Positions 26,115 to 45,644 are shown, counted from the first letter of the stretch. The stretch: DNA of 64,000 nt from Bacteroidia bacterium (GCA_031384515.1 JANNAQ010000013.1:40495-104494); one strand, 5' to 3'. Notes: generated by a model from the letters alone, not told the origin. Numbers and translations are program-made.

Positions 26115-28454
26115 ATGGAAAAAAATATAGAAAAAATTGCCAATGAATTAAATCTCTCCACGCAACAAGTAGAGATTGTTATTGAAATGTTGGTAGAGGG
26201 AGCGACTATCCCTTTTATGGCGCGTTACCGAAAAGAAATGACTGGTAGCCTGGATGAAGTACAACTGGCGGCAATTCGCGATCGCCATGAACAGCTTATG
26301 GAGTTGGATAAACGCAAGGAGGCAATTCTTAAGTCGATTGAGAAGCAGGAAAGGTTAACACCTGCATTAGCAAAAGATATTGAGCAGGCTGAGACGATGG
26401 TGGCATTGGAGGACATCTACCTTCCCTACAAACCTAAACGCAAAACACGCGCCAGCATAGCCAAGGAAAAAGGGCTTGAGCCATTAGCACTAAGTTTATT
26501 TGAGCAAGGTAAATTGGAGGTGGATAAACTTGCGGCCACGTATATTAATACAGAGTTGGGTGTGGCTAACATACAAGAAGCATTGGAAGGAGCACGAGAT
26601 ATCATGGCAGAATGGATCAGTGAAAATCAGGAAGCACGGAAAAATATTCGCGAAATCTTCTGGCAAGACGGTATCATCGAAGCCTCTGTGATAAAATCAA
26701 AGGCAGAAACGGAAGAGGCTCAAAAGTTTAAGGATTATTTTGAGTGGAAAGAGCCGATCAAAAAAACCCCTTCACACCGATTGCTCGCCATGCGCAGAGC
26801 CGAGAAAGAAGGATTTATTTCTTTAGACATTGCCCCCACCGAAGCACTTGCTATACAAACTCTGGAAAAGCAATTTATAAAAACGTCATCGCCAGTAGGC
26901 GAACAAGTTGGTATGGCTATTAAAGATTCGTATAAACGATTGTTAAAACCTTCGCTCGAAAGCGAGGTTCGAATAGAATCCAAACAACAAGCCGATGTAG
27001 AAGCAATCAAAGTATTTTCTTCCAACCTTAAAGAATTGCTTCTGGCTTCTCCTCTGGGACAAAAGCGAGTGATGGCACTTGACCCCGGGTTCAGGTCGGG
27101 CACTAAATTAGTTGCGTTAGGTGAGCAAGGAGAATTGCTTTTCAATACAGTGATTTATCCATTAGAACCGCAGCGCGAAACAGATAAGTCATCGGCTATC
27201 GTGATGGGGTTGTGCGATCGATTTAAAATTGAGGCAATCGCCATTGGCAATGGAACAGCTAGTAGAGAGACTGAATCATTTGTTAAGTCGCTGGGTCTTC
27301 CAAAAGAAATTTTGATAGTGATGGTTAATGAAAGCGGAGCTTCCATTTATTCGGCCAGCGATGTTGCTCGTGAAGAGTTCCCAGATCATGACATCACGGT
27401 GCGAGGTGCTGTATCAATCGGAAGAAGATTGACTGACCCATTGGCTGAGTTGGTAAAGATTGATGCAAAGTCAATTGGTGTGGGTCAATACCAACATGAT
27501 GTAGATCAAGTTAAATTAAAAGCTGGGCTTGATGATGTGGTGATGAGTTGTGTCAACTCTGTTGGGGTAGAGGTAAATACTTCGAGTAGAGAATTACTTT
27601 CTTATGTATCCGGATTGGGGCCTCAATTAGCAAAGAGTATAGTTGAATATAGAAATCAAAATGGAGCCTTTAAAGACCGACATTCTTTGCATAATGTGCC
27701 TCGCTTGGGTGAAAAAGCGTTTGAACAGTGTGCCGGTTTTTTGCGCATTCGTGATTCAAAAAATCCGTTAGATGCTAGTGCCGTGCATCCCGAGCGTTAT
27801 GAGCTGGTCGAAAAATTTGCGAGTGACTTAGGATGCACAGTAAAAGATTTAATGACAAATGCCGAGGTGCGAAAGAAGCTTGACCTCAAAAATTATGTGA
27901 GCGACACCGTTGGACTGCCTACATTAACTGATATATTGTTAGAACTAGAAAAGCCAGGTCGTGATCCACGTGAAAAGTTTGAGGTATTTTCTTTTGAAGA
28001 AGGCATTCACGAAATAAAAGATTTGAAGGTGGGGATGATGTTACCTGGTATTGTTACCAACGTCACCAACTTCGGGGCGTTTGTAGATGTGGGTGTGCAT
28101 CAAGATGGTCTTGTGCACATTAGTCATTTGAGTGACCGGTTTATTAAAGACCCAAGCCAGGTTATTTCTGTTCAGCAAAAAGTAAAGGTTACTGTAGTAG
28201 AGGTTGATGTCGCGCGCAAGCGAATTGCGTTGTCGATGAAGAGTGATCCTTTTGGGAATGCGCCTGCGAAATCAAGTGAACAAAAAACTTCTTCGCAACA
28301 GTCGAAGCCAGGATCTAAGCGTTCGGATTCCAAACATCCGGGGTCTGTGTCCTCACAGACACCAAATAAGAAACACACTTCAAATGCTCCTCTGAAAAAA
28401 GAAGAGTCTATGGAAGATAAGCTGGCACAGTTGAGAGAGAAGTTTAAGAGATAA
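26115..28454 (+). CDS. tex: Tex family RNA-binding transcriptional accessory protein
   Basis: GATIPFMARYRKE, ALDPGFRSGTK (YqgF-like), HhH region, S1 domain GAFVDVGVHQDGLVHIS. Confidence 0.96.
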   Translation: MEKNIEKIANELNLSTQQVEIVIEMLVEGATIPFMARYRKEMTGSLDEVQLAAIRDRHEQLMELDKRKEAILKSIEKQERLTPALAKDIEQAETMVALEDIYLPYKPKRKTRASIAKEKGLEPLALSLFEQGKLEVDKLAATYINTELGVANIQEALEGARDIMAEWISENQEARKNIREIFWQDGIIEASVIKSKAETEEAQKFKDYFEWKEPIKKTPSHRLLAMRRAEKEGFISLDIAPTEALAIQTLEKQFIKTSSPVGEQVGMAIKDSYKRLLKPSLESEVRIESKQQADVEAIKVFSSNLKELLLASPLGQKRVMALDPGFRSGTKLVALGEQGELLFNTVIYPLEPQRETDKSSAIVMGLCDRFKIEAIAIGNGTASRETESFVKSLGLPKEILIVMVNESGASIYSASDVAREEFPDHDITVRGAVSIGRRLTDPLAELVKIDAKSIGVGQYQHDVDQVKLKAGLDDVVMSCVNSVGVEVNTSSRELLSYVSGLGPQLAKSIVEYRNQNGAFKDRHSLHNVPRLGEKAFEQCAGFLRIRDSKNPLDASAVHPERYELVEKFASDLGCTVKDLMTNAEVRKKLDLKNYVSDTVGLPTLTDILLELEKPGRDPREKFEVFSFEEGIHEIKDLKVGMMLPGIVTNVTNFGAFVDVGVHQDGLVHISHLSDRFIKDPSQVISVQQKVKVTVVEVDVARKRIALSMKSDPFGNAPAKSSEQKTSSQQSKPGSKRSDSKHPGSVSSQTPNKKHTSNAPLKKEESMEDKLAQLREKFKR
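28380..28454 (+). repeat. tex 3'-end direct repeat, copy 1 (in the intact gene)
   Basis: Encodes SNAPLKKEESMEDKLAQLREKFKR*; 64/75 identical to 38244-38318. Confidence 0.92.
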
Positions 28455-28465
28455 AGTGTCGTTTC

Positions 28466-29443
28466 TTATTTCTTTATAAAAATAAAATCTCCGCCTTCAT
28501 CGACTACATCCTGGATGACTCCAAATTGAGGAACAATGTGAGTATTATTGGAAATGGGCTCAAACATTCTGGAGAAGAGAAGACGCGATGACATAAATAC
28601 TTCCGGGTTATCTCCTAATTTCTTCAATAGGAATTCAACAAAAACACTTTTGTCTGGCACGGTGCTTAGGTTTCCACTCGTCATGGCCCGTCTACTTTTG
28701 TCTTTATACAATTCATTGAATTTCATGATCATACTTGACGCATCTGCCCCGCGGGTTTTAAAGATGCTGCCGCTAAAGCAGGCATCAGCAATGAGTAAGG
28801 TATGTTTGGATTTGATCGCGCCCAGATAATCCTTCAGTGTGCTATTCGGTATCCAGGTGCTTTTATCTTTTATGTTGGCATCGGAGGCTAGCCAATAGCC
28901 AAAGTCTTTTTGTTTATCCCACACACCGTGGCCAGCATAAAAAACCAATACATTATCACGTTCTGTTACTACTTCCGATAAATGCTCCAGGGCGTTAATG
29001 ACATCGCTGCGGGTAGGGTTAGCAAGGTATTTTATGCGCTCGTCATCAAACGTATAATTCTCTTTAAGTACTTGTCTAAGTCTTTCCGCATCTTTTACCG
29101 GTTGATCCAAATTAGGCAATTCGGTAGTGGCGTTTTTGTAGTGCGCCACTCCCATAATCAGCGCATAGTACCTTGGAAGGTTATCCGCTGTAATCCCCAA
29201 TGTCTGCAAGGTTACTACCGATCTCTCTTCTGCTCTTTTTTTCTCTTCTGCAATTCGCGTTTCCTCGGCAAGCCGTAATTCCTCGGCACTTCGGTTTTGT
29301 TCGTCAGCAATCCTCTTCTCCTCTGCTACTACTGAGGCACCTTTAAAATTAATGGCATTGCTTTTTACTCTTGTAGTTTGCGCGGTTGATACCAAGCTAC
29401 TAAAAAGGAGCAGTGTAAAAAAGATATTTTTTTTCATATCCAT
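28466..29443 (-). CDS. Secreted caspase-family (peptidase C14) protein
   Basis: Signal peptide, AEE-rich coiled coil, YALIMGV..Y, catalytic FYAGHG (His) and IADACFSG (Cys). Confidence 0.92.
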   Translation of the reverse strand: MDMKKNIFFTLLLFSSLVSTAQTTRVKSNAINFKGASVVAEEKRIADEQNRSAEELRLAEETRIAEEKKRAEERSVVTLQTLGITADNLPRYYALIMGVAHYKNATTELPNLDQPVKDAERLRQVLKENYTFDDERIKYLANPTRSDVINALEHLSEVVTERDNVLVFYAGHGVWDKQKDFGYWLASDANIKDKSTWIPNSTLKDYLGAIKSKHTLLIADACFSGSIFKTRGADASSMIMKFNELYKDKSRRAMTSGNLSTVPDKSVFVEFLLKKLGDNPEVFMSSRLLFSRMFEPISNNTHIVPQFGVIQDVVDEGGDFIFIKK

Positions 29444-29447
29444 TCTT

Positions 29448-32400
29448 TTAATTCAACACAATTCGATAGAAACTTCTGCGATCGGAATAGTGAAACCTTA
29501 AGAAATAAATGCCAGCGGCAGGGCGATCACCTGTAACGGTAAAGCCATTCCACCGCAATTCATGCGAACCTGAAACTAAATCACCGGTATAAACATCTGT
29601 TACTTTCTGACCCAATGAATTGATCAAGTCAATGCTCACCGGATAACCTTTTCCCCAACCTGGAAGAGAAACAGTAATTTTTGTTTCACCATGCGATGGA
29701 TTAGGTGAGACAGAAAGAATCTTGCCCTCCCCATTTGGCATTTCCTTGGAGAGGTACTCGGAGTTGCCAAAAATAATTTTGAATCTCCCCGGTGTTTTAA
29801 AAAAATAGGAGTTGATGGTTCGCATATTGATGGACGCCTTTTCATTCTCATCGATTAGAAATAATTCTTTTTCATTTCCAGTGAAATGACTATTTCCCCA
29901 GTTGATAGATGCAAATTCTTTTTTGTTATTTGACTCGACAATAAATTTCCATGAATAATTTTCTGAAGTTGGGACAACATCTTTTGAAAACGGATTTCCG
30001 TTGATGACATTCTCATGGTTTAAGTCGATGTATTCTATAAATCGAGGAAGGCTAACATCGTCATATTTATCAAACCCGATTTTAGCATCTGATTGCATTC
30101 CAATTCCTGAGATAGAATTAACCAATTCACCTTGCTTTAAATTCAAGGCTAACTCCCAACTAGCAGATTCAAATGGATTGGATGGCGCAGTTTTACTTTC
30201 TGATATTCTTCCGCTTTTACTCCTGGAAGGAGGAAAAATAAGAATAGAGGCTTGCTCTGCGAAGACGAAGCCGCCTTCCATTTTTTTCAGGACTGTGGAA
30301 TTATCATAGGGTGCGCCCGTAAATATTTTTAGGGGTCTTGTGCCAATGAAAGAATTGGCATTCTGAATGTCGCTCCAGTCGATATTGAAATTGTATGGAT
30401 TGCCGATTTGATTCCAGCCTTGTTTAAGTTGTATGCTGAAAGGACTCGAAACGGATTTGCCGGGACCACCTGTTAATGCTTTGCCCGGATTATTCTTTAT
30501 CAGCAACCAATATCCCCAACCTGTTTCGATCGGATCTGATGCTACTAATTCCTTTGTTGAGTTTCCATCCCAATGCGACAATCTCCAATTAAATTGATCG
30601 AACTGTCCCAATTCGTCAAAAACGTTTCCGGCATTTTTATTATCAAGTTGATATGGAAAAGAAATGATCCTGTAGTTGGATTGGCCTGAGCCAAAATTAT
30701 CATAGGGTAACGGTGGTCCATCTGAGGGTTGTTTCACCGCTACAGGGTAGTGGGGAGTTTGCTCAGCAAGACCTAAACCATTTAAAGCTGTTATCCAATA
30801 CTCAACACCAATCTCACCGATAGCAGATGCCGGTATGGTAGCAACCCAATTGTTGCCTGTCAACGTCATTTCCAAAATTACTTCAGTGCTGGTGGTCAAT
30901 CGGTTTTTATAAAACAAAGAAGCATTAGCCACTCCTGATTCCGGATCAGTTATTTGCGCAGTGATCGCCAGAGACACGTCCTTGTCAACAATTGCAATTG
31001 GCGAATGAACAATTACAGGCTTGGTTGAGTCAATGGATTTGTTGCCTGTAAGAGGCGAAGCAGTACGATAGTTGATGGTAACGCCACTGCCATTGTAAGC
31101 ATACACTTGATAGAAATAGTTTGTGCCTGCAGTCAATCCTGTTTCATTGAAGGTTACGGCTGTGCCTACATAAGCAATTGTTCCATCGCCTATTGGTGAT
31201 GCAACTGCGTAGCCAGTCGCGTCCACTGGAAGGGATGTGGCTACTGATCCAGCTTTGCGAACTACTAGATATCCCGATGGTGTTCCGGTCGCTGCGGTGA
31301 AAGAAACGGTAAACGTAGTTGACCCTACATTGGAGAATACAAGTGCCGTTGGTTGAGAAGCAGGCTCCGTTGCTAACGTACTCTTACTTCCTTCAAGAGG
31401 TGAGGCAGTAAGATAGTTGAGGGTTGATCCGCTTCCATTGTAGGAAAAGACATCATAGAAATAAGTTGTTGAGGCGGTCAGCCCTGTTTCATTGAATGTT
31501 AAAGCGCTACCCACATACGCCACGGTACTTGCGCCAATTGCATTGCCAGTTGTGTATTCTGTTCCATCAAGCGGTACATCAGTAGGAGAAGAAACAGTTT
31601 TGCGTAGAACAATGTAACCGGCAGGCGAACCTAAAGCAGCTGTCCATGATAAGGTCATTGAAGTTGCCTGAACGTTGGAGAATAAAAGAGAAGTTGGTTG
31701 TGCGGTTGGTTCGGACGCAAGAGCTGGACTGGTGGTCTGATTGTTTTCAAGCGGACTAGTTGTTAGGTAATTATATGTTCCCGTTATTCCGTTGTAGGAG
31801 AAGATATCGTAGAAATATGTTGTTGAAGCAGTAAGTCCTGTTTCATTAAAAGTTAAAGCACTACCCACATACGCTACAGTGCTTGTGCCGATCGTATTGG
31901 TTGCCGAATATTCTGTTCCATCCAAAGGCACATCAGTTGGCGAAGAAACAGTTTTTCGAATAACGACATAACCAGCACGAGAGCCAGTCGCTGCTGTCCA
32001 ACTCAAGGTCATTGAAGTTGGTTGAACGCTGGAAAACGTAAGTGCTGTAGGTTGGGCAGTTGGTTCTGTTGCAAGTGTAGGACTGGTGGTCTGGTTATTT
32101 TCAAGCGGGCTAGTTGTTAAATAATTATACGTACCCGTTGTTCCGTTGTAGGAGAAGACATCATAAAAGTAATTTGTAGAAGGGATAAGCCCTGTTTCAA
32201 TGAAAGTTATTCCGCCAGCTGCATACGCTACGGTGCTGGTGCCAATCAGGTTGGTTGCGGAATATTCTGTTCCATCAACTGGCACATCTGTGGGAGAAGA
32301 AACAGTCTTGCGGAGAACAAGGTAACCTGCTGGAGAGCCAGTAGCGGCAATCCATGTTAACGTTATTGAAGTTGCCTGAACACTAGAAAAGCTGAGTGCA

Positions 32401-35400
32401 GTTGGTTGTGCGGTTGGTGGAGCAGCTAAAGTTGTTTGGGTTCCTACGAGCGGAGCAAGAGTTAAGTAATTATATGTACCCGTTGTTCCGTTGTAGGAAA
32501 ATACCTTGTAGAAATAATTTGTTGACGGTGCAAGACCTGTTTCATTAAAAGTTAACGCACTACCTGCATACGCCACGGTACTGGTGCCGATCGTATTGCC
32601 TGTTATGTATGCCGTTGCATCCACCGGTATATCGGTTAGCGAAGAAACAGTATTGCGAAGAACAATGTAACCGGCTGGAGAACTTGAAGCGGCTGCCCAG
32701 GTTAAGTTCATCGTAGTTGACTGAACGTTTGTAAAAATTAAAGAAGTTGGTTGTGCTGTTGGTTCAGTGGCAAGCGTTGTTTGATTATTTTCAAGTGGAC
32801 TTGTTGTTAGGTAATTATAAGTTCCCGTTGTTCCGTTGTACGAGAATACATCATAGAAGTAAGCAGTTGATGCAGTAAGTCCTGTTTCATTGAATGTTAA
32901 GGTACTGCCTACATATGCTACAGTGCTTGTGCCAATAGAGCCTGTTGCGGTATAAGATATTTCATCTACTGGAACGTCAGTAGGAGAAGACCCTGTTTTA
33001 CGAAGAACAAGATAGCCAGTAGGTGAACCTGTAGCTGCTGTCCAGTTTAAGGTCATTGAAGTTGGTTGAATGCTAGAGAATAAAAGGGAAGTAGGTTGCG
33101 TTGTCGGTTCCGTTGCAAGAGCAGAGCTCGTTGTTTGATTATTTTCAAGTGGACTAGTTGTTAAGTAATTGTATGTTCCGGTAGTTCCATTATAAGAGAA
33201 TACATCGTAGAAATAAGTAGTTGAAGCAGTAAGCCCAGTTTCATTAAACGTTAGGGCACTACCTGCATACGCTACGGTGCTGGTGCCAATCGTATTGGAT
33301 GCGGTGTATGCAGTTCCATCCACGGGCACATCGGTAGGAGATGAGCCTACTTTTCGAAGAACAATATAACCAACTGGAGAACCTGTCGCTGCTGTCCATG
33401 TTAAAGTCATTGAGTTCAATTGAACGCTGGAGAATAAAAGAGAAGTTGGTTGAGCCGTTGGCTCAGGTGCAAGGGTTGGGCTCGTTGTCTGATTGTTTTC
33501 GAGCGGAGTGGTAATTAAATAATTATACGTCCCCGTAGTTCCATTGTAAGAGAAGACATCATAAAAGTAATTTGTAGAAGGGATAAGCCCCGTTTCAATG
33601 AAAGTTATCCCGCTAGCTGCATACGCTACAGTGCTGGTGCCGATCAGGTTGGTTGCGGAATATTCTGTTCCATCCACGGGCACATCTGTGGGAGAAGAAA
33701 CAGTTTTGCGAAGTACGATATAACCAGCAGGAGAACCTGTTGCTGCTGTCCATGTTAAGGTCATTGAAGTAGATTGAATACTGGAGAAAGAAAGTGAAGT
33801 GGGTTGTGCAGTTGGTTCAGGGGCTAAAGTTGTAAGATTATTTACGAGCGGAACAGTTGTTAGATAATTGAACGTTCCTGTTGTTCCGTTGAAGGAGAAT
33901 ACATTGTAGAAATAATTCGTTGAAGCGGTAAGTCCAGTTTCATTGAATGTTAAAGCACTACCTGCATACGCCACTGTGCTTGTTCCTATGGTGTTGCCTA
34001 TTGTGTACACCGTTCCATCTACCGGCACATCTGTAGGCGAAGAAACAGTATTGCGAAGAACAATGTAACCTACCGGAGAGCCAGAAGCTGCTGCCCAGGT
34101 TACAGTCATAGTAGATGCCTGAATAGTAGTAAAAGTTAAAGAAGTGGGTTGCGCAGTTGGTTCAGAGGCTAAAGTTGTTTGACTTCCTTCCAGTGGCGTT
34201 GTGGTTAAATAATTATAAGTTCCGGTTGTTCCGTTGTAAGAGAATACATCGTAGAAATAAGTTGTTGAAGCGGTAAGCCCCGTTTCATTTAATGTTAAAG
34301 CATTGCCTGCATACGCTACGGTGCTGGTTCCAATTGCGTTGCCTATTGTGTATGCCGTTCCATCTATGGGTATCTCCGTTGGAGAAGAAATTGTTTTGCG
34401 AAGTACGATATAACCAGTTGGAGAACCTATTGCTGCTGTCCATGATAAGGTCATCGTAGTTGGCTGAACGCTGGAAAACGTAAGTGCTGTAGGTTGAGCA
34501 GTTGGTTCTGTTGCAAGGGTAGGACTGGTTGTCTGATTATTTTCGAGCGGACTAGTTGTTAAGTAATTATACGTTCCCGTAGTTCCATTATAAGAGAAGA
34601 TGTCATAGAAATAATTTGTTGAAGCGGTAAGACTTGTTTCATTAAAAGTTAATGCACTTCCTACATACGCTACGGTGCTGGTTCCAATTGTGTTGCCTAT
34701 TGTATATGCCGTTCCATCTATGGGCACATCCGTTGGAGAAGAAATTATTTTGCGAAGTACGATATAACCAGTTGGAGAACCTGTCGCTGCTGTCCATGAT
34801 AAGGTCAGCGAAGTTGGCTGAACGCTGGAAAACGTAAGTGCTGTAGGTTGAGCAGTTGGTTCTGAGATAATAGTAGTATTTCTAAAAACAGAAATCGAAT
34901 TATTTCCATTTCCCACTACTAAATCAGGCTTTCCATCACCGTCAATATCAGCAATGTTGACATCGTAGGAGGATTGCGTTTTTGGGAAATCAATTTTTGC
35001 GGCAAAAGAACTTGTATTGATCACACCGGATGAGCTGGTGTTTTTGTACACAGAGACGGTGTTGGTGCTTTCGCAAACAACTGCAATCTCCAGCTTCCCA
35101 TCACCATCAAGGTCACCCAATGCAACTCCTAAAGGTCTTGTGCCTGTCGTGAAATCAATATTGGCAGCAAAGGAACCCGTTGTGATTATCCCCTGGGTGG
35201 AAATGTTTCTGAATACAGAGACTTTAGCCCCTTGCAGAAGTACGACAGCAAGGTCAGGCTTGCCATCACCATCCAGATCACCAATGCCTACTCGGTTAGT
35301 CGGGCCACTGCCAGTAGTAAGATTAACTGTTGAAGCAAAGGAACCAGCCGAGATGGAACCTAAAGTAGAGGTGTTTTTCAATATAGAAATGTTATTGCTG

Positions 35401-37358
35401 TTGCCATTGGCAACCACCAATTCTGGTTTACCGTCAGCATCCAAATCTGCGATGTTAACATTTAATGGATTTGTTCCTACAGTAAAATCAATTTTGGGAG
35501 CAAATGAACTTGTGGTGATCGCTCCCGTGGTGTAGATATTTTGAAAAACCGAAACCGTAGTACCATCATTATTGGCAACCACCAAATCAGCCTTCCCGTC
35601 ACCATCCAAATCACCTATGATAGCACCCGATGCTCTTGTCGTGGTGGCCAAGTCTACCCTGGATCCAAAAGAACCTGAAGTGATTGATCCCGCAGTACTC
35701 GTATTTTGGAATATCGATACCGAACTGCTCGTGTAATTCGTTACTACCATATCCAGTTTCCCGTCACCGTCAAGGTCAGCAAGCGCCATACCTGAAGGTC
35801 TTGTGCCCGGGGTAAAGTCAACCTTTGTAGCAAAGGAGCTACCGGTGATTGCTCCCGCACTACTCGTATTTCTCAACACTGAAACCGATGAGCCCGTATA
35901 ATTTGATACTGCCATGTCCGACTTACCATCCCCATCGAGGTCGCCAACTCCTACAAAATAAGATTCATTCTCTGCTGTAGTGAAGTCCACCTTGGTGGCA
36001 AAAGAGCTCGCATCGATAATTCCGCTGCTTGGAAATGTTACGATAAACGGTTTGCTCGAATAAGCCGTAAGTCCACCTGTTGTTATTGTAATAGGTTGGT
36101 AGGTTGCACCAGTTGGCACAGTCACTGTAAGTTGTGTTGCTGATGCATTCGTTACAGTTGCTTTGGTAGCACCAAAGTAAATGATGTTGTTTGTTGGGGA
36201 TGTACTGAAGTTTGTGCCGGTGATTATAACGGTTGTGCCTACTGGGCCACTTGTAGGGGTGAAACTGGTTATTGCAGGTGGAAGTGTGTAAATATCTACA
36301 ACATTTGAAATTGAACTTCCTGAAGCATCACTTCCACCACCAAAAAATGCCATTGTCCCAAGAGCAGTCGCGCTTAAATAACCTCGTGCTTCGGAAAGCG
36401 TGGCTGTAGTCCAGTTATTAGTACTGTTGTCATAAATATCAACAACATTGGAATTACTTCCATTGTTGCCTCCTGCAAAAAAAACTTTATTCCCTACTGA
36501 ACTAGAACTTAGACCCTCTCTTGCCTGAGAGAGAGTTGCGGTTGACCATATATTGGTGTTATTGTCATATACATCTACCACATTGGAACTAACGCCATTG
36601 TTACCACCCGCAAAAAAAACTTTAGTCCCAACGGAAGTGGCAGTTAAATACCACCTTGCTTGCGAGAGAGTGGCGGTTGTCCAGGTATTGTTACTGTTGT
36701 CATAGATATCCACAACATTGGAAGGAACTGAAGCACTAGTACTACCTCCAGCAAAAAAAACTTTAGTCCCAACTGAGGTTGCGCTCGAATAGTACCTCGC
36801 TTGAGAGAGTGTAGCCGTTGCCCAGGTATTAGAGCTGTTATCATAAATATCCACAACATTGGAAGCCGCTAAACCATTGTGCCCGCCTGCAAAAAATACT
36901 TTGGTGCCTACTGAAGTCGCAACTAAAATACTCCGTGCCTCAGAAAGATTTGCCGTTGTCCATGTACTTGTACTATTGTCGAATATGTCAACTACATTTG
37001 AATTGGTACCATTATCCCCACCTGCAAAAAAAACTTTAGTTCCAATGGAGGCAGCACTTAATGAGCACCGTGCCTGAGACAATGTTGCTGTAGTCCAAGT
37101 GTTAGTACTATTATCATAAATATCAATAACATTGGAACAATTAGGTACATTATTATATCCTCCTGCAAAAAAGACTTTAGTTCCAACCGATGCTGCGCTT
37201 AGTTGAGTACGCGCCTGAGAAAGAGTAGCCGTAGTCCATTGAGCCTGTGCTACAGTTGAAATAAAAAGCCCTGTTAGGGTGATCAATAGGACAATGAGCA
37301 ATCTTGATTTTTTTATTGCGAGTCTGATATAACAATATTTTATAAAGTCATCCTTCAT
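29448..37358 (-). CDS. 2636-aa T9SS-type surface protein: 7 kelch-like repeats, IPT/TIG, FG-GAP repeats, 11 FN3-like repeats, C-terminal sorting domain
   Basis: 7x W.TA.LS.AR...VFFAGG; PAITSFTPTSGPVGT; multiple GDLDGDGK.D; 11x EPTAQPT..F...W..A; C-terminal SVSPNPS...LINSLGQKV...WNG....GIYFL. Confidence 0.92.
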   Translation of the reverse strand: MKDDFIKYCYIRLAIKKSRLLIVLLITLTGLFISTVAQAQWTTATLSQARTQLSAASVGTKVFFAGGYNNVPNCSNVIDIYDNSTNTWTTATLSQARCSLSAASIGTKVFFAGGDNGTNSNVVDIFDNSTSTWTTANLSEARSILVATSVGTKVFFAGGHNGLAASNVVDIYDNSSNTWATATLSQARYYSSATSVGTKVFFAGGSTSASVPSNVVDIYDNSNNTWTTATLSQARWYLTATSVGTKVFFAGGNNGVSSNVVDVYDNNTNIWSTATLSQAREGLSSSSVGNKVFFAGGNNGSNSNVVDIYDNSTNNWTTATLSEARGYLSATALGTMAFFGGGSDASGSSISNVVDIYTLPPAITSFTPTSGPVGTTVIITGTNFSTSPTNNIIYFGATKATVTNASATQLTVTVPTGATYQPITITTGGLTAYSSKPFIVTFPSSGIIDASSFATKVDFTTAENESYFVGVGDLDGDGKSDMAVSNYTGSSVSVLRNTSSAGAITGSSFATKVDFTPGTRPSGMALADLDGDGKLDMVVTNYTSSSVSIFQNTSTAGSITSGSFGSRVDLATTTRASGAIIGDLDGDGKADLVVANNDGTTVSVFQNIYTTGAITTSSFAPKIDFTVGTNPLNVNIADLDADGKPELVVANGNSNNISILKNTSTLGSISAGSFASTVNLTTGSGPTNRVGIGDLDGDGKPDLAVVLLQGAKVSVFRNISTQGIITTGSFAANIDFTTGTRPLGVALGDLDGDGKLEIAVVCESTNTVSVYKNTSSSGVINTSSFAAKIDFPKTQSSYDVNIADIDGDGKPDLVVGNGNNSISVFRNTTIISEPTAQPTALTFSSVQPTSLTLSWTAATGSPTGYIVLRKIISSPTDVPIDGTAYTIGNTIGTSTVAYVGSALTFNETSLTASTNYFYDIFSYNGTTGTYNYLTTSPLENNQTTSPTLATEPTAQPTALTFSSVQPTTMTLSWTAAIGSPTGYIVLRKTISSPTEIPIDGTAYTIGNAIGTSTVAYAGNALTLNETGLTASTTYFYDVFSYNGTTGTYNYLTTTPLEGSQTTLASEPTAQPTSLTFTTIQASTMTVTWAAASGSPVGYIVLRNTVSSPTDVPVDGTVYTIGNTIGTSTVAYAGSALTFNETGLTASTNYFYNVFSFNGTTGTFNYLTTVPLVNNLTTLAPEPTAQPTSLSFSSIQSTSMTLTWTAATGSPAGYIVLRKTVSSPTDVPVDGTEYSATNLIGTSTVAYAASGITFIETGLIPSTNYFYDVFSYNGTTGTYNYLITTPLENNQTTSPTLAPEPTAQPTSLLFSSVQLNSMTLTWTAATGSPVGYIVLRKVGSSPTDVPVDGTAYTASNTIGTSTVAYAGSALTFNETGLTASTTYFYDVFSYNGTTGTYNYLTTSPLENNQTTSSALATEPTTQPTSLLFSSIQPTSMTLNWTAATGSPTGYLVLRKTGSSPTDVPVDEISYTATGSIGTSTVAYVGSTLTFNETGLTASTAYFYDVFSYNGTTGTYNYLTTSPLENNQTTLATEPTAQPTSLIFTNVQSTTMNLTWAAASSSPAGYIVLRNTVSSLTDIPVDATAYITGNTIGTSTVAYAGSALTFNETGLAPSTNYFYKVFSYNGTTGTYNYLTLAPLVGTQTTLAAPPTAQPTALSFSSVQATSITLTWIAATGSPAGYLVLRKTVSSPTDVPVDGTEYSATNLIGTSTVAYAAGGITFIETGLIPSTNYFYDVFSYNGTTGTYNYLTTSPLENNQTTSPTLATEPTAQPTALTFSSVQPTSMTLSWTAATGSRAGYVVIRKTVSSPTDVPLDGTEYSATNTIGTSTVAYVGSALTFNETGLTASTTYFYDIFSYNGITGTYNYLTTSPLENNQTTSPALASEPTAQPTSLLFSNVQATSMTLSWTAALGSPAGYIVLRKTVSSPTDVPLDGTEYTTGNAIGASTVAYVGSALTFNETGLTASTTYFYDVFSYNGSGSTLNYLTASPLEGSKSTLATEPASQPTALVFSNVGSTTFTVSFTAATGTPSGYLVVRKAGSVATSLPVDATGYAVASPIGDGTIAYVGTAVTFNETGLTAGTNYFYQVYAYNGSGVTINYRTASPLTGNKSIDSTKPVIVHSPIAIVDKDVSLAITAQITDPESGVANASLFYKNRLTTSTEVILEMTLTGNNWVATIPASAIGEIGVEYWITALNGLGLAEQTPHYPVAVKQPSDGPPLPYDNFGSGQSNYRIISFPYQLDNKNAGNVFDELGQFDQFNWRLSHWDGNSTKELVASDPIETGWGYWLLIKNNPGKALTGGPGKSVSSPFSIQLKQGWNQIGNPYNFNIDWSDIQNANSFIGTRPLKIFTGAPYDNSTVLKKMEGGFVFAEQASILIFPPSRSKSGRISESKTAPSNPFESASWELALNLKQGELVNSISGIGMQSDAKIGFDKYDDVSLPRFIEYIDLNHENVINGNPFSKDVVPTSENYSWKFIVESNNKKEFASINWGNSHFTGNEKELFLIDENEKASINMRTINSYFFKTPGRFKIIFGNSEYLSKEMPNGEGKILSVSPNPSHGETKITVSLPGWGKGYPVSIDLINSLGQKVTDVYTGDLVSGSHELRWNGFTVTGDRPAAGIYFLRFHYSDRRSFYRIVLN

Positions 37359-37398
37359 TTATTCGGTGTAAAGAGCAAGCCTTTTCATAAACTTCATT

Positions 37399-38106
37399 TT
37401 AATTTCCCGTTGGTGGTTCCGGTGCATTAGGCAATCCTTCCTTTGAGTCGGGCAACAATAAATAAACAACAACTCCTACTATAACCACCGCAGGAGAAAT
37501 CAACCAGGCCAAAGCAACTTTTCTTTTTACTTGTATGGGTATTGTTACTTTATCATCCTTTGATGTCAGTTGTATGTGATAGCCTTTGCCCAAGGTTAAG
37601 TTGGGGTCGGGCTGTAGATTTAAAGTTCCGGTTTTGTTGAGTATCGTTTTTTTCCAAAGCACTTTCTTGTCAGCAGAAATAAATTCGAAATGAATGGAAT
37701 CCTGTGGCCGCCCGCCACTCCATTCAATTGTATTTTCTTTCCCTCTGCGTAAAGATTTTTGTGGAGTTACAAATCTCAAGTGAAAAATCACCTCGGCCTC
37801 CAGTTCAAATGCCAGGTCTCCGCTGAAGTTGTCCAGCTCATGGCCATACAGCCATTCAATTTGCTTGTTTGCACCAGGTGTTACTTTAGCAACAGCACCA
37901 GAAATATTTGCCAGTGGCTTTGAAAAAGCATCATGCGAACTGAAGACTTTTAGTTCTACCCAGGAATCGGTTGGTGCCGTTTATAAATCATATTCAAGAA
38001 TGATTTTATCAGCTTCAATCCTTGTCCTTACATTTTCAATGACTTGCGAAAAGGCAGATTGACACCAAAGGAGGGTAAAACAAACCTGAAGGAACTTTGA
38101 ATACAT
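37399..38106 (-). pseudogene. Exported protein with a C-terminal TM anchor, interrupted by an in-frame TAA at codon 42
   Basis: ATG at 38106 gives signal peptide MYSKFLQVCFTLLWCQSAFS-QVIENVR...; TAA at 37981-37983; the same frame continues open into track ORF 37399..37791. Confidence 0.8.
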
Positions 38107-38243
38107 GTATCGAAGTCTTGCGTAAAGAGAAAATACACCATGTTAAATCTACACAATATAAATTGGTTACAAAAAACGGGGGAGATTATTGCAAGGAGTA
38201 AGGCTTATGCTTTGAATAAGGGGCTTTAATAAAGAAGCCCTCC

Positions 38244-38318
38244 TCAAATGCTCCCGTAAAAAAAGAGGAATCTATAGAGGATAAACTGGCACAATTGAGA
38301 GAGAAGTTTAAGAAGTAA
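38244..38318 (+). repeat. tex 3'-end direct repeat, copy 2 (orphan tail)
   Basis: Encodes SNAPVKKEESIEDKLAQLREKFKK* with no upstream gene; weak homology extends to about 38232. Confidence 0.92.
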
Positions 38319-38352
38319 CAGATACAGTTTGCAAAACCGTATCTTTCTTTCT

Positions 38353-39318
38353 ATGAAGGGAATACTATTGTTAGCATCGATACTATTTGCTTATTCAGCA
38401 TCCGCACAGCGCATTAGTAATACGGCACTATATCGCAATGTAAGTTCAAACCAATATTTTCGTATTCATTACGAAAATGATTATTTCTCCACCACCGATA
38501 TTTATTACACCCAAGGCATTAATCTCGAGTATGTACACCCTGCCATCGGAAACTTTTTTACTTCAAAGCTATTAATTGGCTCGTCTTCCAAAGAAGTTAA
38601 ATTTGGAATTGCTCTGGAGCATGAAGGATACACCCCCACCAGTATTTCACATCCTGAAGTTCTTGTAGGCGACAGACCCTTTGCTGCTTGTTTGTTTCTT
38701 AAAACCTTCTCTATAATAAATGATTCAGTACGCAGAGTCCGTATTTCTTCTTCTCTTAGCGCAGGCGTAATCGGCCCAAGCGCATATGGCAAAGAAATGC
38801 AGGAAACTATCCATAGATGGATCAACGATACGCAACCGCTTGGATGGGAAAATCAGATTAACAACGATCTTATCCTCAATTATGAAGTTGAATATGTAGC
38901 TGAACTTTTCGCCTCTCCCGATTATTTTTCTCTCTCGGCCCAGGTTGGTGCCAATGTAGGCACGCTCAATGCAAAAGCCTTTACAGGAGTAATCATGATG
39001 GCTGGTATTTTTGATAATCCATTTATCAATTTTTCCAGGCAAAAAAGATTGAAACAAGTGTATGTGTATGCAGAACCCTTGCTGAACATTGTTGCCTACG
39101 ATGCCACCTTGCAAGGTGGTATGTTCAATAAAAATAGCCCTTACACAATACCTCGCGAAGATATTACGCGTTTGGTTTTTCAGGCAAATGTTGGAATTGT
39201 TGTTCGGATCAGGGCATTGCAGTTGGAATATTTCCAATCCTATCTCACCAAAGAATTTAGTACCGGTGGCACACATCTTTGGGGCGGCATTCGAATCGGA
39301 TGGTACCTACGTAAGTGA
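38353..39318 (+). CDS. Lipid A deacylase LpxR-family (DUF2219) outer membrane protein, copy 1
   Basis: HYENDYF..TD.YYTQG, YTPT.I......DRPFA, GWENQI, C-terminal WGGIRIGW; ATG at 38353 gives a signal peptide. Confidence 0.82.
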   Translation: MKGILLLASILFAYSASAQRISNTALYRNVSSNQYFRIHYENDYFSTTDIYYTQGINLEYVHPAIGNFFTSKLLIGSSSKEVKFGIALEHEGYTPTSISHPEVLVGDRPFAACLFLKTFSIINDSVRRVRISSSLSAGVIGPSAYGKEMQETIHRWINDTQPLGWENQINNDLILNYEVEYVAELFASPDYFSLSAQVGANVGTLNAKAFTGVIMMAGIFDNPFINFSRQKRLKQVYVYAEPLLNIVAYDATLQGGMFNKNSPYTIPREDITRLVFQANVGIVVRIRALQLEYFQSYLTKEFSTGGTHLWGGIRIGWYLRK

Positions 39319-39343: not shown

Positions 39344-39395
39344 CTACTCCAAAACTGGAAAATTATCCGTAGGGCTTTCGCGCAGATGATATTCC
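39344..39395 (-). repeat. Orphan 3'-end copy C of the gene at 40534-41058
   Basis: Encodes EYHLRESPTDNFPVLE*; 43/52 identical to 40534-40585. Confidence 0.9.
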
Positions 39396-39412
39396 CCAGT
39401 TTCCGCGTTACC

Positions 39413-39817
39413 TCACTTCGTCCAGTTTGCAATGTCAAGTCCTTTAATCCGCTTGAAGTGGTCTGAGTTATTTGTAACAAGTTGAAATTCACTCGTCATG
39501 GCTATACCTGCTATCAAAGTATCCGTATGCCCTATTTCTGTTCCTTTTCTTCATAGGTCAGCTTGAATTATGGCTGCCGCTTTTGCCATACGCAATGTCA
39601 ACGGAACTACTTTGTTTAATTCTACAAATTCTTCAAACCTTGTTAATTGTTTTCTTGCGTCCTTGTATAAAAGTCCGTTGAGAATTTCATAATAAGTGAT
39701 GATGCTTAAACTGATGAAGCCATGCTCCTTCAGGTGTTCGTCAACTTTTGCAATAACCTTCGGGTTGCCTCGTAAAAATTCCGAGAGAACATCGGTGTCA
39801 AGCATTGAGGGTTTCAT
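39413..39817 (-). pseudogene. vapC: VapC/PIN toxin with an in-frame TGA at codon 89
   Basis: MLDTDVLS, SIITYYEILNG; after TGA (39551-53) the same frame continues RKGTEIGHTDTLIAGIA...LVTNNSDHFKRIKGLDIANW. Confidence 0.88.
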
Positions 39818-40059
39818 AAGTCAATGCTGCGGTCAAAGAGCGTTGTCCTTGATTTTTTGGGTTGATTAAGAAAATCCGCATAGTCCTTGTTGCTCATGTC
39901 GCTAAAAGCTCCGCCAAATGAAAGAATTTTCTTCCGCAATCCATCTGAGGCAGATTGTTTGGTAGGAGGTGTCAGAGAATGAACAAACTGATAGAGTTCT
40001 TCTAACCGGTTAACCGGAACATCTTTCATCTCTTTTAAAATGGAATTTAATGTCAACAT
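39814..40059 (-). CDS. Putative antitoxin
   Basis: 81-aa ORF whose stop overlaps the PIN gene start (ATGA); own -7 element at 40077-40084. Confidence 0.7.
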   Translation of the reverse strand: MLTLNSILKEMKDVPVNRLEELYQFVHSLTPPTKQSASDGLRKKILSFGGAFSDMSNKDYADFLNQPKKSRTTLFDRSIDL

Positions 40060-40247
40060 TGTCGTCTAAATTTTGTCAAAGGTAGCGGAAAAATAGCGTT
40101 AATCAGTAGCACTAAGTTTAGTGAGTATGCGACAGATGAATTTACTAAATGATAAAAATTTTGTCATAAAGTAATACTATTTGATTGGCGTTGGATCATG
40201 ATTCAACCATGAATACAATCTGCTAAATTGGATATGAGAAGAACATT

Positions 40248-40289
40248 CTCTACTCCAGCACCGGAAAATTATCGGTAGGTCTTTCGCGA
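40248..40289 (-). repeat. Orphan 3'-end copy A of the gene at 40534-41058
   Basis: Encodes RERPTDNFPVLE*; 40/42 identical to 40532-40573. Confidence 0.92.
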
Positions 40290-40475
40290 GGGTGATGCAA
40301 AGACCGCCTTTAGATCATTTTGGGTTAACCCCGGGTAACTCTCAAAAATCATCTTTTCAGTCCAGCCATTAGCCAATAGATCCAAAATCAATTCAACTGA
40401 AATTCTTGTTCCTTTTATTGTCGGTTTGCCCAATAAAACTTCTTTATCTGACATAATATGTTCTTTCCAATTCAT
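40269..40475 (-). pseudogene. DUF433 antitoxin-like gene, 3'-truncated by repeat copy A
   Basis: LLGKPTIKGTRISVELILDLLANGW......YPGL...DLKAV; the last codons run out of frame into the duplicated tail; no DUF5615 partner. Confidence 0.8.
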
Positions 40476-40533
40476 ACATCAAATATATTAGTTTTCAGGC
40501 AGAAGCAGAATCCAGCTATTGAGCAATCTTGCT

Positions 40534-41058
40534 CTACTCCAGCACCGGAAAATTATCAGCAGGTCTTTCGCGAAGATGGTACTCCATAATGATGCGTGCG
40601 CAGGTATTCCATCGCAGAACGGGATCATTATTACCGTCTCTGTTGATAGCATCAGCATTCTCATAAAACTCCATGGCTTCGCGATACCATTCGTAGGCAT
40701 CAAAATCAGAACCGGGGGTTGTTGATTTCAATGCTGTTGCGCCCTGACGTTCATGAACAATTCCGGTATAATAAATTCTGGCGTATTCATCTTTCAAACT
40801 CTTGGAAATGCTTAATGCTTGATTGGCTGTCTTCGAGGATGATTCGCCAAATTGATCCGTTAAGGCAAGCAACAAAATAACGGAGGCGCGCTGATTGTCA
40901 GGCGTAATCAACAGAACATCCAGGCAGATGCTCTCCGCCAACCGCGGCTGATTGAGCAAGCGATAATGTTCCGCTTTACCGAGTGAAGATTCAATGCCTT
41001 CTTTTGAAAGCGGCTTCAATTCAAACACATTTGCTTCGGAGGTTGTTGCTGTTCTCAT
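40534..41058 (-). CDS. Hypothetical TPR-like helical protein downstream of sdhB ('gene X')
   Basis: 174 aa; KAEHYRLLNQP..AESICLDVL...DNQ.A...LLLALTDQF, YYTGIVHER, VLRWNTCAR; 31 bp after sdhB. Confidence 0.8.
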   Translation of the reverse strand: MRTATTSEANVFELKPLSKEGIESSLGKAEHYRLLNQPRLAESICLDVLLITPDNQRASVILLLALTDQFGESSSKTANQALSISKSLKDEYARIYYTGIVHERQGATALKSTTPGSDFDAYEWYREAMEFYENADAINRDGNNDPVLRWNTCARIIMEYHLRERPADNFPVLE

Positions 41059-44663: not shown

Positions 44664-45644
44664 ATGGGCATTGAACTTGTGAAAAAAGTAATTCTTCTCG
44701 CTTCCATGGGGATAGCATCTTCTACCTTAGGGCAACGCATCAACACGACTGCGTTGTATCGCAACGTCAGCGCGCAAAAGTATTTTCGGCTTCACTATGA
44801 GAACGATTATTTCTCAACCACCGACATCTATTATACACAAGGCATTAATCTTGAGTACGTACATCCAACGATTGGAAATTTTTTTACGTCCAGATTATTG
44901 GTGCATTCGGATTCGAAGGATGTTAAATTTGGCATTTCCCTTGAACACGAAGCGTATACACCTACCAGCATTGCTCACTCCGAAATTCTAGTGGGAGACC
45001 GGCCTTTCGCGGCAGTAGTATTTTTCAATACCTTTTCGGTTGTAAGTGATGCTATTCGCAGAGAGCGTGTTTCGTCTTCTCTTAGTGCAGGTGCAATCGG
45101 ACCTGTCGCGGGCGGTAAAGAAATACAGGAGACAATTCATCGCTGGATCAATGACACTCAACCGCAGGGGTGGCAGAACCAGATCCGTCTCGATGTTATC
45201 CTGAACTATCAGATAGACTACGAGCGGGAACTTTTAATGTATCCAAATCATTTTTTACTTTCTGGAAAAGCGGGTGCCCGTGTAGGCACCTTGAATACGA
45301 AAGCGTATGCAGGGGTTATTTTAATGGCTGGTTATTTTGACGATCCGTTTAAAGACTTTTCAAAACAAGAGAGAAAATTGCAAGCTTATCTGTATGCAGA
45401 GCCATTATTTCAAATTATTGGGTATGATGCAACATTACAGGGCGGCTTAGTTCATCGGGCCAGTCCCTATACTATATCAGTGAGTGACATCAGCCGATGG
45501 GTTTTGCAGGGAAACGTTGGCCTGGTTGTTAAAATTAATAGGGTGCAAGTGGAGTATTTTCAGTCCTACCTTACAAAAGAATTTGAAACAGGAGGGTCTC
45601 ATCTGTGGGGTGGAATTCGAATAGGCTGGTATTTAGACAGGTAA
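44664..45644 (+). CDS. LpxR-family (DUF2219) outer membrane protein, copy 2
   Basis: Collinear paralog of 38353-39318, roughly two-thirds identical by eye. Confidence 0.82.
   Translation: MGIELVKKVILLASMGIASSTLGQRINTTALYRNVSAQKYFRLHYENDYFSTTDIYYTQGINLEYVHPTIGNFFTSRLLVHSDSKDVKFGISLEHEAYTPTSIAHSEILVGDRPFAAVVFFNTFSVVSDAIRRERVSSSLSAGAIGPVAGGKEIQETIHRWINDTQPQGWQNQIRLDVILNYQIDYERELLMYPNHFLLSGKAGARVGTLNTKAYAGVILMAGYFDDPFKDFSKQERKLQAYLYAEPLFQIIGYDATLQGGLVHRASPYTISVSDISRWVLQGNVGLVVKINRVQVEYFQSYLTKEFETGGSHLWGGIRIGWYLDR

Follow-up and report, generated by a model that had tools for sequence, protein, structure and literature searches.

The stretch of DNA analyzed here (hereafter the window) comprises 64,000 nucleotides (nt) of a Bacteroidia bacterium (GCA_031384515.1, here referred to as G000; JANNAQ010000013.1:40495-104494), and all positions are counted from its first letter. 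The genome was assembled in 99 contigs from a freshwater sediment metagenome with co-occurring related strains, and the locus of interest lies on contig C35. There, a full-length tex gene is followed by a 9.8-kb segment that consists of one operon of three minus-strand genes and nothing else, by a second copy of the end of tex, which we call the orphan tail, and by the gene lpxR1 (Table 1). A blastn comparison pairs positions 28368-28449, in the resident tail of tex, with positions 38232-38313 (82 nt, 84.1% identity, E 7.5e-19). Followed from 28365 and 38229 to the respective stop codons, the repeat measures 90 nt with 73 identities, the two copies lying 9.8 kb apart. The first-pass annotation of this DNA, made from the sequence alone, had reported that the last 25 codons of tex recur with 11 mismatches over 75 nt; this was borne out, with 64 of 75 positions identical, and the homology was found to reach slightly further upstream. 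The 3' limit of the similarity is the stop codon, and its 5' limit lies 2-7 nt past a hairpin in tex that resembles a repetitive extragenic palindrome (REP). Near the stop codon both tails contain a perfectly identical 19-nt block, which is also identical in the tex genes of two related genomes, G043 and G117. The G000 genome holds exactly two copies of the tail; a third copy is absent.

The orphan tail, which lies 34 nt upstream of the lpxR1 ATG (38353), is non-coding. The first-pass annotation had raised the possibility that it belongs to a separate expressed open reading frame (ORF), and this was rejected: its 32-amino acid (aa) frame has no ATG, GTG or usable TTG start, and the TTG at 38329 is merely where the longest ORF begins. 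There is likewise no sign that the orphan acts as a regulatory region of lpxR1, as only about 25 nt before the lpxR ATG are conserved in genomes G089 and G074. Visual inspection of 38110-38352 for the Bacteroidota -7 motif gave imperfect matches only.

Table 1. Features at the tex locus, in window coordinates
Feature	Position	Strand	Size or description	Evidence
tex, full length	26115..28454	+	779 aa	Pfam Tex_N, Tex_central_region, Tex_YqgF, HHH_3, HHH_9, S1
REP-like palindrome, family REP_a	28341..28362	+	22 nt, in frame in the tex linker	fold -13.4 kcal/mol
Resident tex tail (left repeat copy)	28365..28454	+	last 29 codons and stop	alignment, blastn
Caspase-like peptidase C14	28466..29443	-	325 aa	Pfam Peptidase_C14, E 2.2e-15
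Giant protein	29448..37358	-	2636 aa; conserved C-terminal domain	Pfam: Kelch propeller, TIG, FG-GAP repeats, at least 11 fn3
First operon gene, signal-peptide/Ig-like protein	37399..38106	-	235 codons; C-terminal transmembrane helix	translation; weak Kre9_KNH match
Non-coding right end of the insert, presumed operon promoter region	38107..38228	.	no ORF	contiguous with the orphan in L072, 99.7% identity
Orphan tex tail	38229..38318	+	29 codons and stop, without start codon; 32-aa open frame	alignment, blastn
lpxR1	38353..39318	+	321 aa	Pfam LpxR, E 3e-62; 79-80% identical orthologues in G089/G074 beside gene174-sdhBAC
Three copies of the last ~15 codons of the gene for a 174-aa protein (gene174)	39344-39395, 40250-40296, 40534-40585 (span 39344..40585)	-

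The differences between the two tails are of the kind expected between working alleles. Over 29 codons, the stop included, they differ at 15 nt (12 of them transitions) and in only five residues (H/P, T/S, L/V, M/I and R/K), with no indel and with the stop codon retained, and in a simulation of matched random substitutions five or fewer residue changes with frame and stop kept had a probability of 0.005. Furthermore, the orphan is as far from the resident tail as the tex gene of the sister species G043 is from either of them: over the 90 nt, the resident and the orphan share 73 positions with each other and 74 and 73, respectively, with G043. The encoded Tex protein is 89% identical to that of G043, the closest in the comparison set, and 87% identical to that of G117, and the DNA identity between the tex genes of G000 and G043 is 75-86% along the whole gene. 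The variant residues P, S, V and K of the orphan occur in tex alleles of the clade, for which we compared G043, G117 and two metagenomic sequences, P0001 and P0003, that encode the closest Tex proteins. The isoleucine that the orphan has at a conserved methionine is unusual, and among the more distant tex genes fetched L020 alone shares it. An internal control is provided by orphan gene ends on contigs C4, C18 and C59, which at 78-87% identity carry stops and scrambled residues.

Because of the synonymous bias, the equal distances to the resident tail and to G043 and the residues shared with the clade, we regard the orphan as the probable fossil of another, once-working tex allele and not as a decayed target-site duplication. 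The first-pass annotation had likewise read the pair as two functional tex alleles, and the stop codons in the decayed orphans elsewhere in the genome add to this view. The event would thus have joined tex ends of two lineages that differ at about the species level, and either tail could be the native one. Target-site duplications of transposons measure 2-15 bp and are identical at origin, and the repeat described here, with its 82-90 nt, 16-19% divergence and synonymous bias, is of a different kind. A diversity-generating retroelement was also considered and rejected, as the mismatches are not adenine-specific (A/G, G/A, T/C and C/G occur, in both directions), and a Pfam search of the ORFs between 22.9 and 41.9 kb revealed no reverse transcriptase.

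For comparison we used 177 species representatives of the genus-level group (176 besides G000), of which 122 have tex and 54 (53 besides G000) have a detectable tail. The first-pass annotation had asked whether all relatives carry the cassette and both tails. The cassette was seen in none of the 176 congeneric species and a second tex tail in none of the 53 other genomes with a detectable tail, so that the same target is unused there. G043, whose tex is the closest, has a DUF5916 gene, tex and then an unrelated convergent gene 35 nt past the stop, without cassette or orphan. In G117 the left flank is as in G000, and a single GAF/HisKA gene separates tex from the gene174 ortholog, the two being 1.7 kb apart. 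G089 and G074 are without tex and keep the order lpxR1-gene174-sdhBAC. In addition, a contig of run X4, from a relative with a 84% identical tex, seems to join the tex stop to a gene174-type end, the joined side being 39 nt only. In G000 itself, lpxR1 is bracketed by the orphan tex end and the outermost of the three gene174 ends.

The simplest reconstruction of the ancestral order, and in our view a plausible one from this gene order, is tex-lpxR1-gene174. The ancestral adjacency of tex and lpxR proposed in the first-pass annotation is therefore upheld in part: the position of lpxR1 between both orphan ends and the synteny in G117 and G089/G074 speak for it, but tex followed by lpxR was found in none of the 176 congeneric species, and in G129 the order is reversed, with lpxR upstream of tex. 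A metagenome scan with LpxR1 returned relatives of at most 70% identity, none adjoining tex; a genus-wide caspase search found no tex neighbor, and an exact look-up of Tex found no record. An arrangement in G002, where tex is convergent with a gene for a type IX secretion system-tail protein and an fn3 giant, was examined as a donor arrangement and rejected, the repeats being 29-31% similar and a caspase gene being absent.

Two further observations concern this region. A second lpxR gene is present at 44664-45644, its product having 68% aa identity to LpxR1; the two lpxR genes flank the gene174-sdhBAC block, and G089 and G074 carry the lpxR1-type copy only. The P0001 and P0003 contigs (2.4-2.7 kb) break within 22-280 nt of both tex gene ends, which looks as if the tex flanks vary between strains there too.

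The junctions of the segment are found in independent data. In a conspecific assembly, GCA_031362995.1 (L072), the operon end, the orphan and lpxR1 are contiguous at 99.7% identity, the giant and caspase genes occur together with the resident tail on Logan contig L148, all at 100% identity, and the junction region is covered by contigs of runs from two further studies. Our population data are contigs from four runs, of which the best-supported joints were viewed, and contigs drop rare variants. Within this scope, neither an empty site (a joint of 28454 to 38318) nor a circle joint was present among the best-supported joints. The element is probably not mobile now, and the currently mobile cassette that the first-pass annotation allowed for is not supported, given the lack of a recombinase, the absence of an empty site or circle among those joints and the recovery of the junction in L072 and in two other studies. 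As a separate observation, L148 matches the window from 31828 to 28385 at 100% and then continues with 30 GC-rich bases (L148:3445-3474) found nowhere in G000; this foreign tip could stem from a chimeric read, or from a rare variant whose resident-type tail has another upstream context.

The caspase-like gene of the inserted operon is convergent with tex, with a stop-to-stop gap of 11 nt. Its homologues in the genus are at best 73% and mostly about 60% identical, and nine of the 11 that were fetched come after a homologue of the C-terminus of the giant protein. Conversely, residues 2180-2635 of the giant protein are 35-39% identical to the products of genes upstream of caspase homologues in other species. 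This pairing of giant and caspase genes recurs across the genus in other genomic contexts, and G000 has two further paralogous three-gene modules (on C11 and C80) in which an Ig-like protein is encoded beside giant-like and caspase-like genes; the cargo thus belongs to a family of accessory operons that is widespread. The first operon gene is interrupted by an in-frame TAA at 37981-37983 (codon 42). Because L072, assembled independently, shares this stop, the gene has probably been disrupted, and a sequencing error is the less likely cause. The guanine-plus-cytosine (GC) content of the segment (0.40-0.46, against 0.40 for the genome) shows no anomaly. Pfam searches of all ORFs of the segment revealed no recombinase or remnant of one. 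A genome search with PF00589 gave five tyrosine recombinases, none of them on C35; serine recombinases were not searched genome-wide.

The tex locus does not stand alone. When the last 120 nt of 3615 ORFs were compared with the G000 genome, keeping same-strand copies and leaving out paralogue ends, about 20 orphan tails that reach the stop codon were found downstream of their genes, versus about two upstream. At least 15 other loci of G000 share the footprint, and orphan ends of this kind lie on contigs C1 (72900), C5, C7, C10, C23, C37, C38, C48, C61, C66, C86, C93 and C97. The orphan ends, which lie downstream of their own gene, are 30-120 nt long and 82-100% identical to the resident end, with mostly synonymous differences and a retained stop codon. 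Pooled over 17 gene-end pairs, there are 122 nt differences and 28 residue differences. Pairs on C23, C10, C61 and C86 are among those that are individually significant, the one on C23 having 12 nt differences and no residue difference. A control with the heads of genes (orphan 5' ends) was too noisy with paralogues for a clean contrast. The inserts at these loci range from 37 nt to 7.7 kb and carry, among other things, ParE and PIN toxin-antitoxin pairs, DUF433, an AAA_14/DUF4143 ATPase, Bro-N, DinB, a TIG/Kelch protein and two Y1_Tnp (IS200/RAYT-like) genes, RAYT standing for REP-associated tyrosine transposase.

One such locus lies about 1 kb from the tex insertion. A PIN toxin-antitoxin pair and a DUF433 gene lie between the three copies of the gene174 end, a footprint like that of tex. 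This site is polymorphic: one contig of run X5 lacks a 909-nt segment with the PIN toxin-antitoxin pair, and in L072 the place is taken by a DUF5615/DUF433 pair. Together with it, the tex footprint marks the interval between tex and gene174 as an insertion hotspot.

Several of the orphan tails abut REP hairpins or RAYT-like genes. Strong hairpins occur within 60 nt upstream of the orphan edge at six of 19 loci, versus 5% of random windows. The hairpin in tex belongs to a family, REP_a, with 11 copies in G000 that follow the strict pattern and 15 when one mismatch is allowed; the tex copy is the sole one inside any full-length ORF and encodes part of the peptide GSVSSQT. Its 22 nt are identical in the tex gene of G043, where the surrounding DNA is about 80-85% identical, and are absent from that of G117. 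The tex orphan has no REP_a copy next to it. An HUH motif is present in two Y1_Tnp/RAYT-like genes, one on C10 (L140:1836-2396, 45 bits) and one on C48 (L141:3885-4502, a homologue with E 4e-17). Each lies between a gene end and the orphan copy of that end, with a hairpin family of its own on its flanks; both convergent neighbors of the C10 gene have duplicated ends, and the gene on C48 is surrounded by seven REP_a copies. The link of REP sequences and RAYT-like genes to stranded gene ends is an association only.

We consider it probable that an old insertion at the 3' end of tex left the repeat as its scar, and that the incoming DNA brought its own tex end and was joined through tex homology on one side. 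The original order tex-lpxR1-gene174 would later have been pushed apart by insertions at both gene ends. In the case of tex, a related lineage within the genus-level group would have contributed 9.8 kb of DNA, which came to lie inside the last ~90 nt of the gene; as the incoming DNA would have carried its own tex end, tex would have stayed whole, and the previous end would have been cut off and stranded as non-coding sequence before lpxR1. The kind of joining that we favor would combine tex homology on one side with an illegitimate or hairpin-associated join on the other, perhaps through homology-facilitated illegitimate recombination or a single crossover of a circular intermediate, and this join would adjoin the REP hairpin that lies in frame in tex. 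Both the direction of events and the joining mechanism are what we infer. In favor of this scenario are the repeat itself, which is no product of chance, the allelic divergence of the orphan, the single-operon segment without a recombinase, the synteny in G043, G117 and G089/G074, which fits an insertion, the junction in L072 and in contigs of two other studies, and the orphan tails across the genome.

Several points weigh against this scenario. RecA-type recombination on about 90 nt at 84% identity is inefficient, and it would call for an explanation if illegitimate joins fell within 30-120 nt of gene ends time and again. A parental state was not found, as no genome has tex followed by lpxR or tex beside this caspase operon. 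A mosaic breakpoint within tex was not seen in sliding-window identity to G043, G117 and G168. Under a stricter null, in which the resident is under selection and the orphan alone evolves neutrally, the probability of the observed residue differences becomes roughly 0.03 by our own estimate, so that the synonymous bias of tex taken singly is moderately significant. Finally, three sites in codons 2-15 pair the resident with G117 and the orphan with G043, and four sites in codons 18-30 show the reverse affinity (resident with G043, orphan with G117); this pattern of a reciprocal chimera is a weak hint of a single crossover, and its seven sites are too few.

The layout also recalls a site-specific island, in which an integrase targeted the 3' end of tex and inserted an element with an attP resembling that end, the tails would be attL and attR, and the integrase gene would have been lost or act in trans. 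Direct repeats of the 3' end of the target gene (82-90 nt) do flank the element, the perfect 19-nt block near the stop is in both tails, the possible reciprocal chimera would fit a single crossover, and the gene174 site has stacked tails and varies between strains. We nevertheless regard this explanation as unlikely: the operon-filled segment has neither a recombinase nor a remnant, the five tyrosine recombinases being on other contigs, a footprint at 15 or more gene ends goes beyond one or a few site-specific enzymes, none of the 53 other species shows a second tail, and the 19-nt block, which G043 and G117 also have, may be conserved coding sequence. Another order of events, which we hold to be improbable, begins with a duplication, by insertion or by REP-mediated tandem duplication, that gave two identical tails, followed by a swap of the tex allele for a diverged one through homologous recombination that would leave the orphan as the previous allele. 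Such a history would also explain the synonymous-biased divergence and the non-decayed state of the orphan. It may be further supported by the other loci, which form a continuum from 100% to 82% identity and of which several repeat a unit of tail plus REP hairpin whose non-coding part is the more alike (at C61, the tail is 86% and the downstream part 100% identical), as well as by the hairpins near orphan edges (six of 19 versus 5%) and the REP_a copy just before the resident tail. It requires, however, two events, and a hypothetical mechanism would have to copy ~90 nt during the insertion of 9.8 kb; neutral decay would be expected, yet the orphan has no indel or stop at 16-19% divergence, unlike those on C4, C18 and C59, and it has no REP_a beside it.

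A chimeric contig built from two strains of the metagenome, or a chance or low-complexity similarity, would be a trivial explanation of the repeat. The fragmented sediment assembly with its co-occurring strains and the foreign tip that L148 carries in the resident tail would be in line with such an artefact. The E value of the repeat, the contiguity in L072 at 99.7%, the match of L148 at 100% and the contigs of other studies across the junction make it highly implausible.

The insertion scenario can be extended to the genome as a whole. This lineage (Cyclobacteriaceae) might gain genes without an integrase, by DNA being joined at gene 3' ends, often at REP hairpins that are possibly cut by REP-associated Y1 transposases, together with a replacement end from the donor, so that stranded gene ends that still look coding would be left behind; no example would then be larger than tex, where the in-frame REP would have determined the breakpoint. 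We put this generalization forward as a tentative and rather doubtful one. If insertions routinely bring replacement ends, stranded gene ends would be datable fossils that record the entry site of accessory genes and their foreign source lineage, and if true, such fossils would inform even where no mobile-element gene remains. In the present case, the footprint points to a large adhesin/caspase operon acquired by recombination with a congeneric donor, and the association with REP hairpins and RAYT-type genes is a testable lead on how integrase-free islets are inserted.

Genomic islands that enter the 3' ends of tRNA or protein genes by means of tyrosine or serine recombinases and duplicate the att site are known, tycheposons being an example (bioRxiv 10.1101/2020.12.28.424599). 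As in such islands, the insert at tex lies between the complete gene end and an incomplete copy that differs slightly, the replacement end keeps the gene intact, and partial copies may be stacked, here at the gene174 site. Unlike such islands, the tex segment has no integrase, excisionase or remnant and its cargo is one chromosomal-type operon; many different gene ends of G000 bear the footprint, and neither excision nor an empty site was seen in the contigs. Displacement of the C-terminal ends of rhs and cdiA genes is similar in that 3' fragments downstream of an intact gene record earlier ends. There, however, what is displaced is a variable toxin domain along with an immunity gene, downstream of the shared homology, whereas the tex repeat comes from the very end of a housekeeping gene, which is conserved and to which the cargo bears no relation.

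Homology-facilitated illegitimate recombination, as outlined in one account of natural transformation (PMC3240628), offers a parallel that involves no integrase. As in that process, foreign DNA would have one-sided homology, the other side would be joined illegitimately and no recombinase would be needed; the unremarkable GC content of the tex segment suggests that the donor was a relative, which fits as well. The original work is reportedly that of de Vries and Wackernagel. To our knowledge, recipient DNA is mostly replaced or lost in this type of recombination, and short duplications of gene ends are not among its known products; the tex insertion, which does leave one, departs from that usual outcome. 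Its illegitimate junction is expected to show 3-8 bp of microhomology shared by donor and recipient; for tex, the searches recovered neither a donor sequence nor an unoccupied recipient site. As in REP/RAYT systems of the IS200/IS605 superfamily, G000 has small REP-like families and at least two Y1_Tnp-type HUH genes, with one REP at the edge of the tex tail. We know of no RAYT/REP system that inserts kilobases of cargo or duplicates gene ends, and the tex case differs in having both a kilobase cargo and a duplicated gene end, and in having no REP_a beside the orphan. Integrase-driven islands provide known cases of a gene end displaced next to inserted DNA, and what is new here is that this occurs without a recombinase, with a single operon as cargo and at many parallel loci of the same genome.

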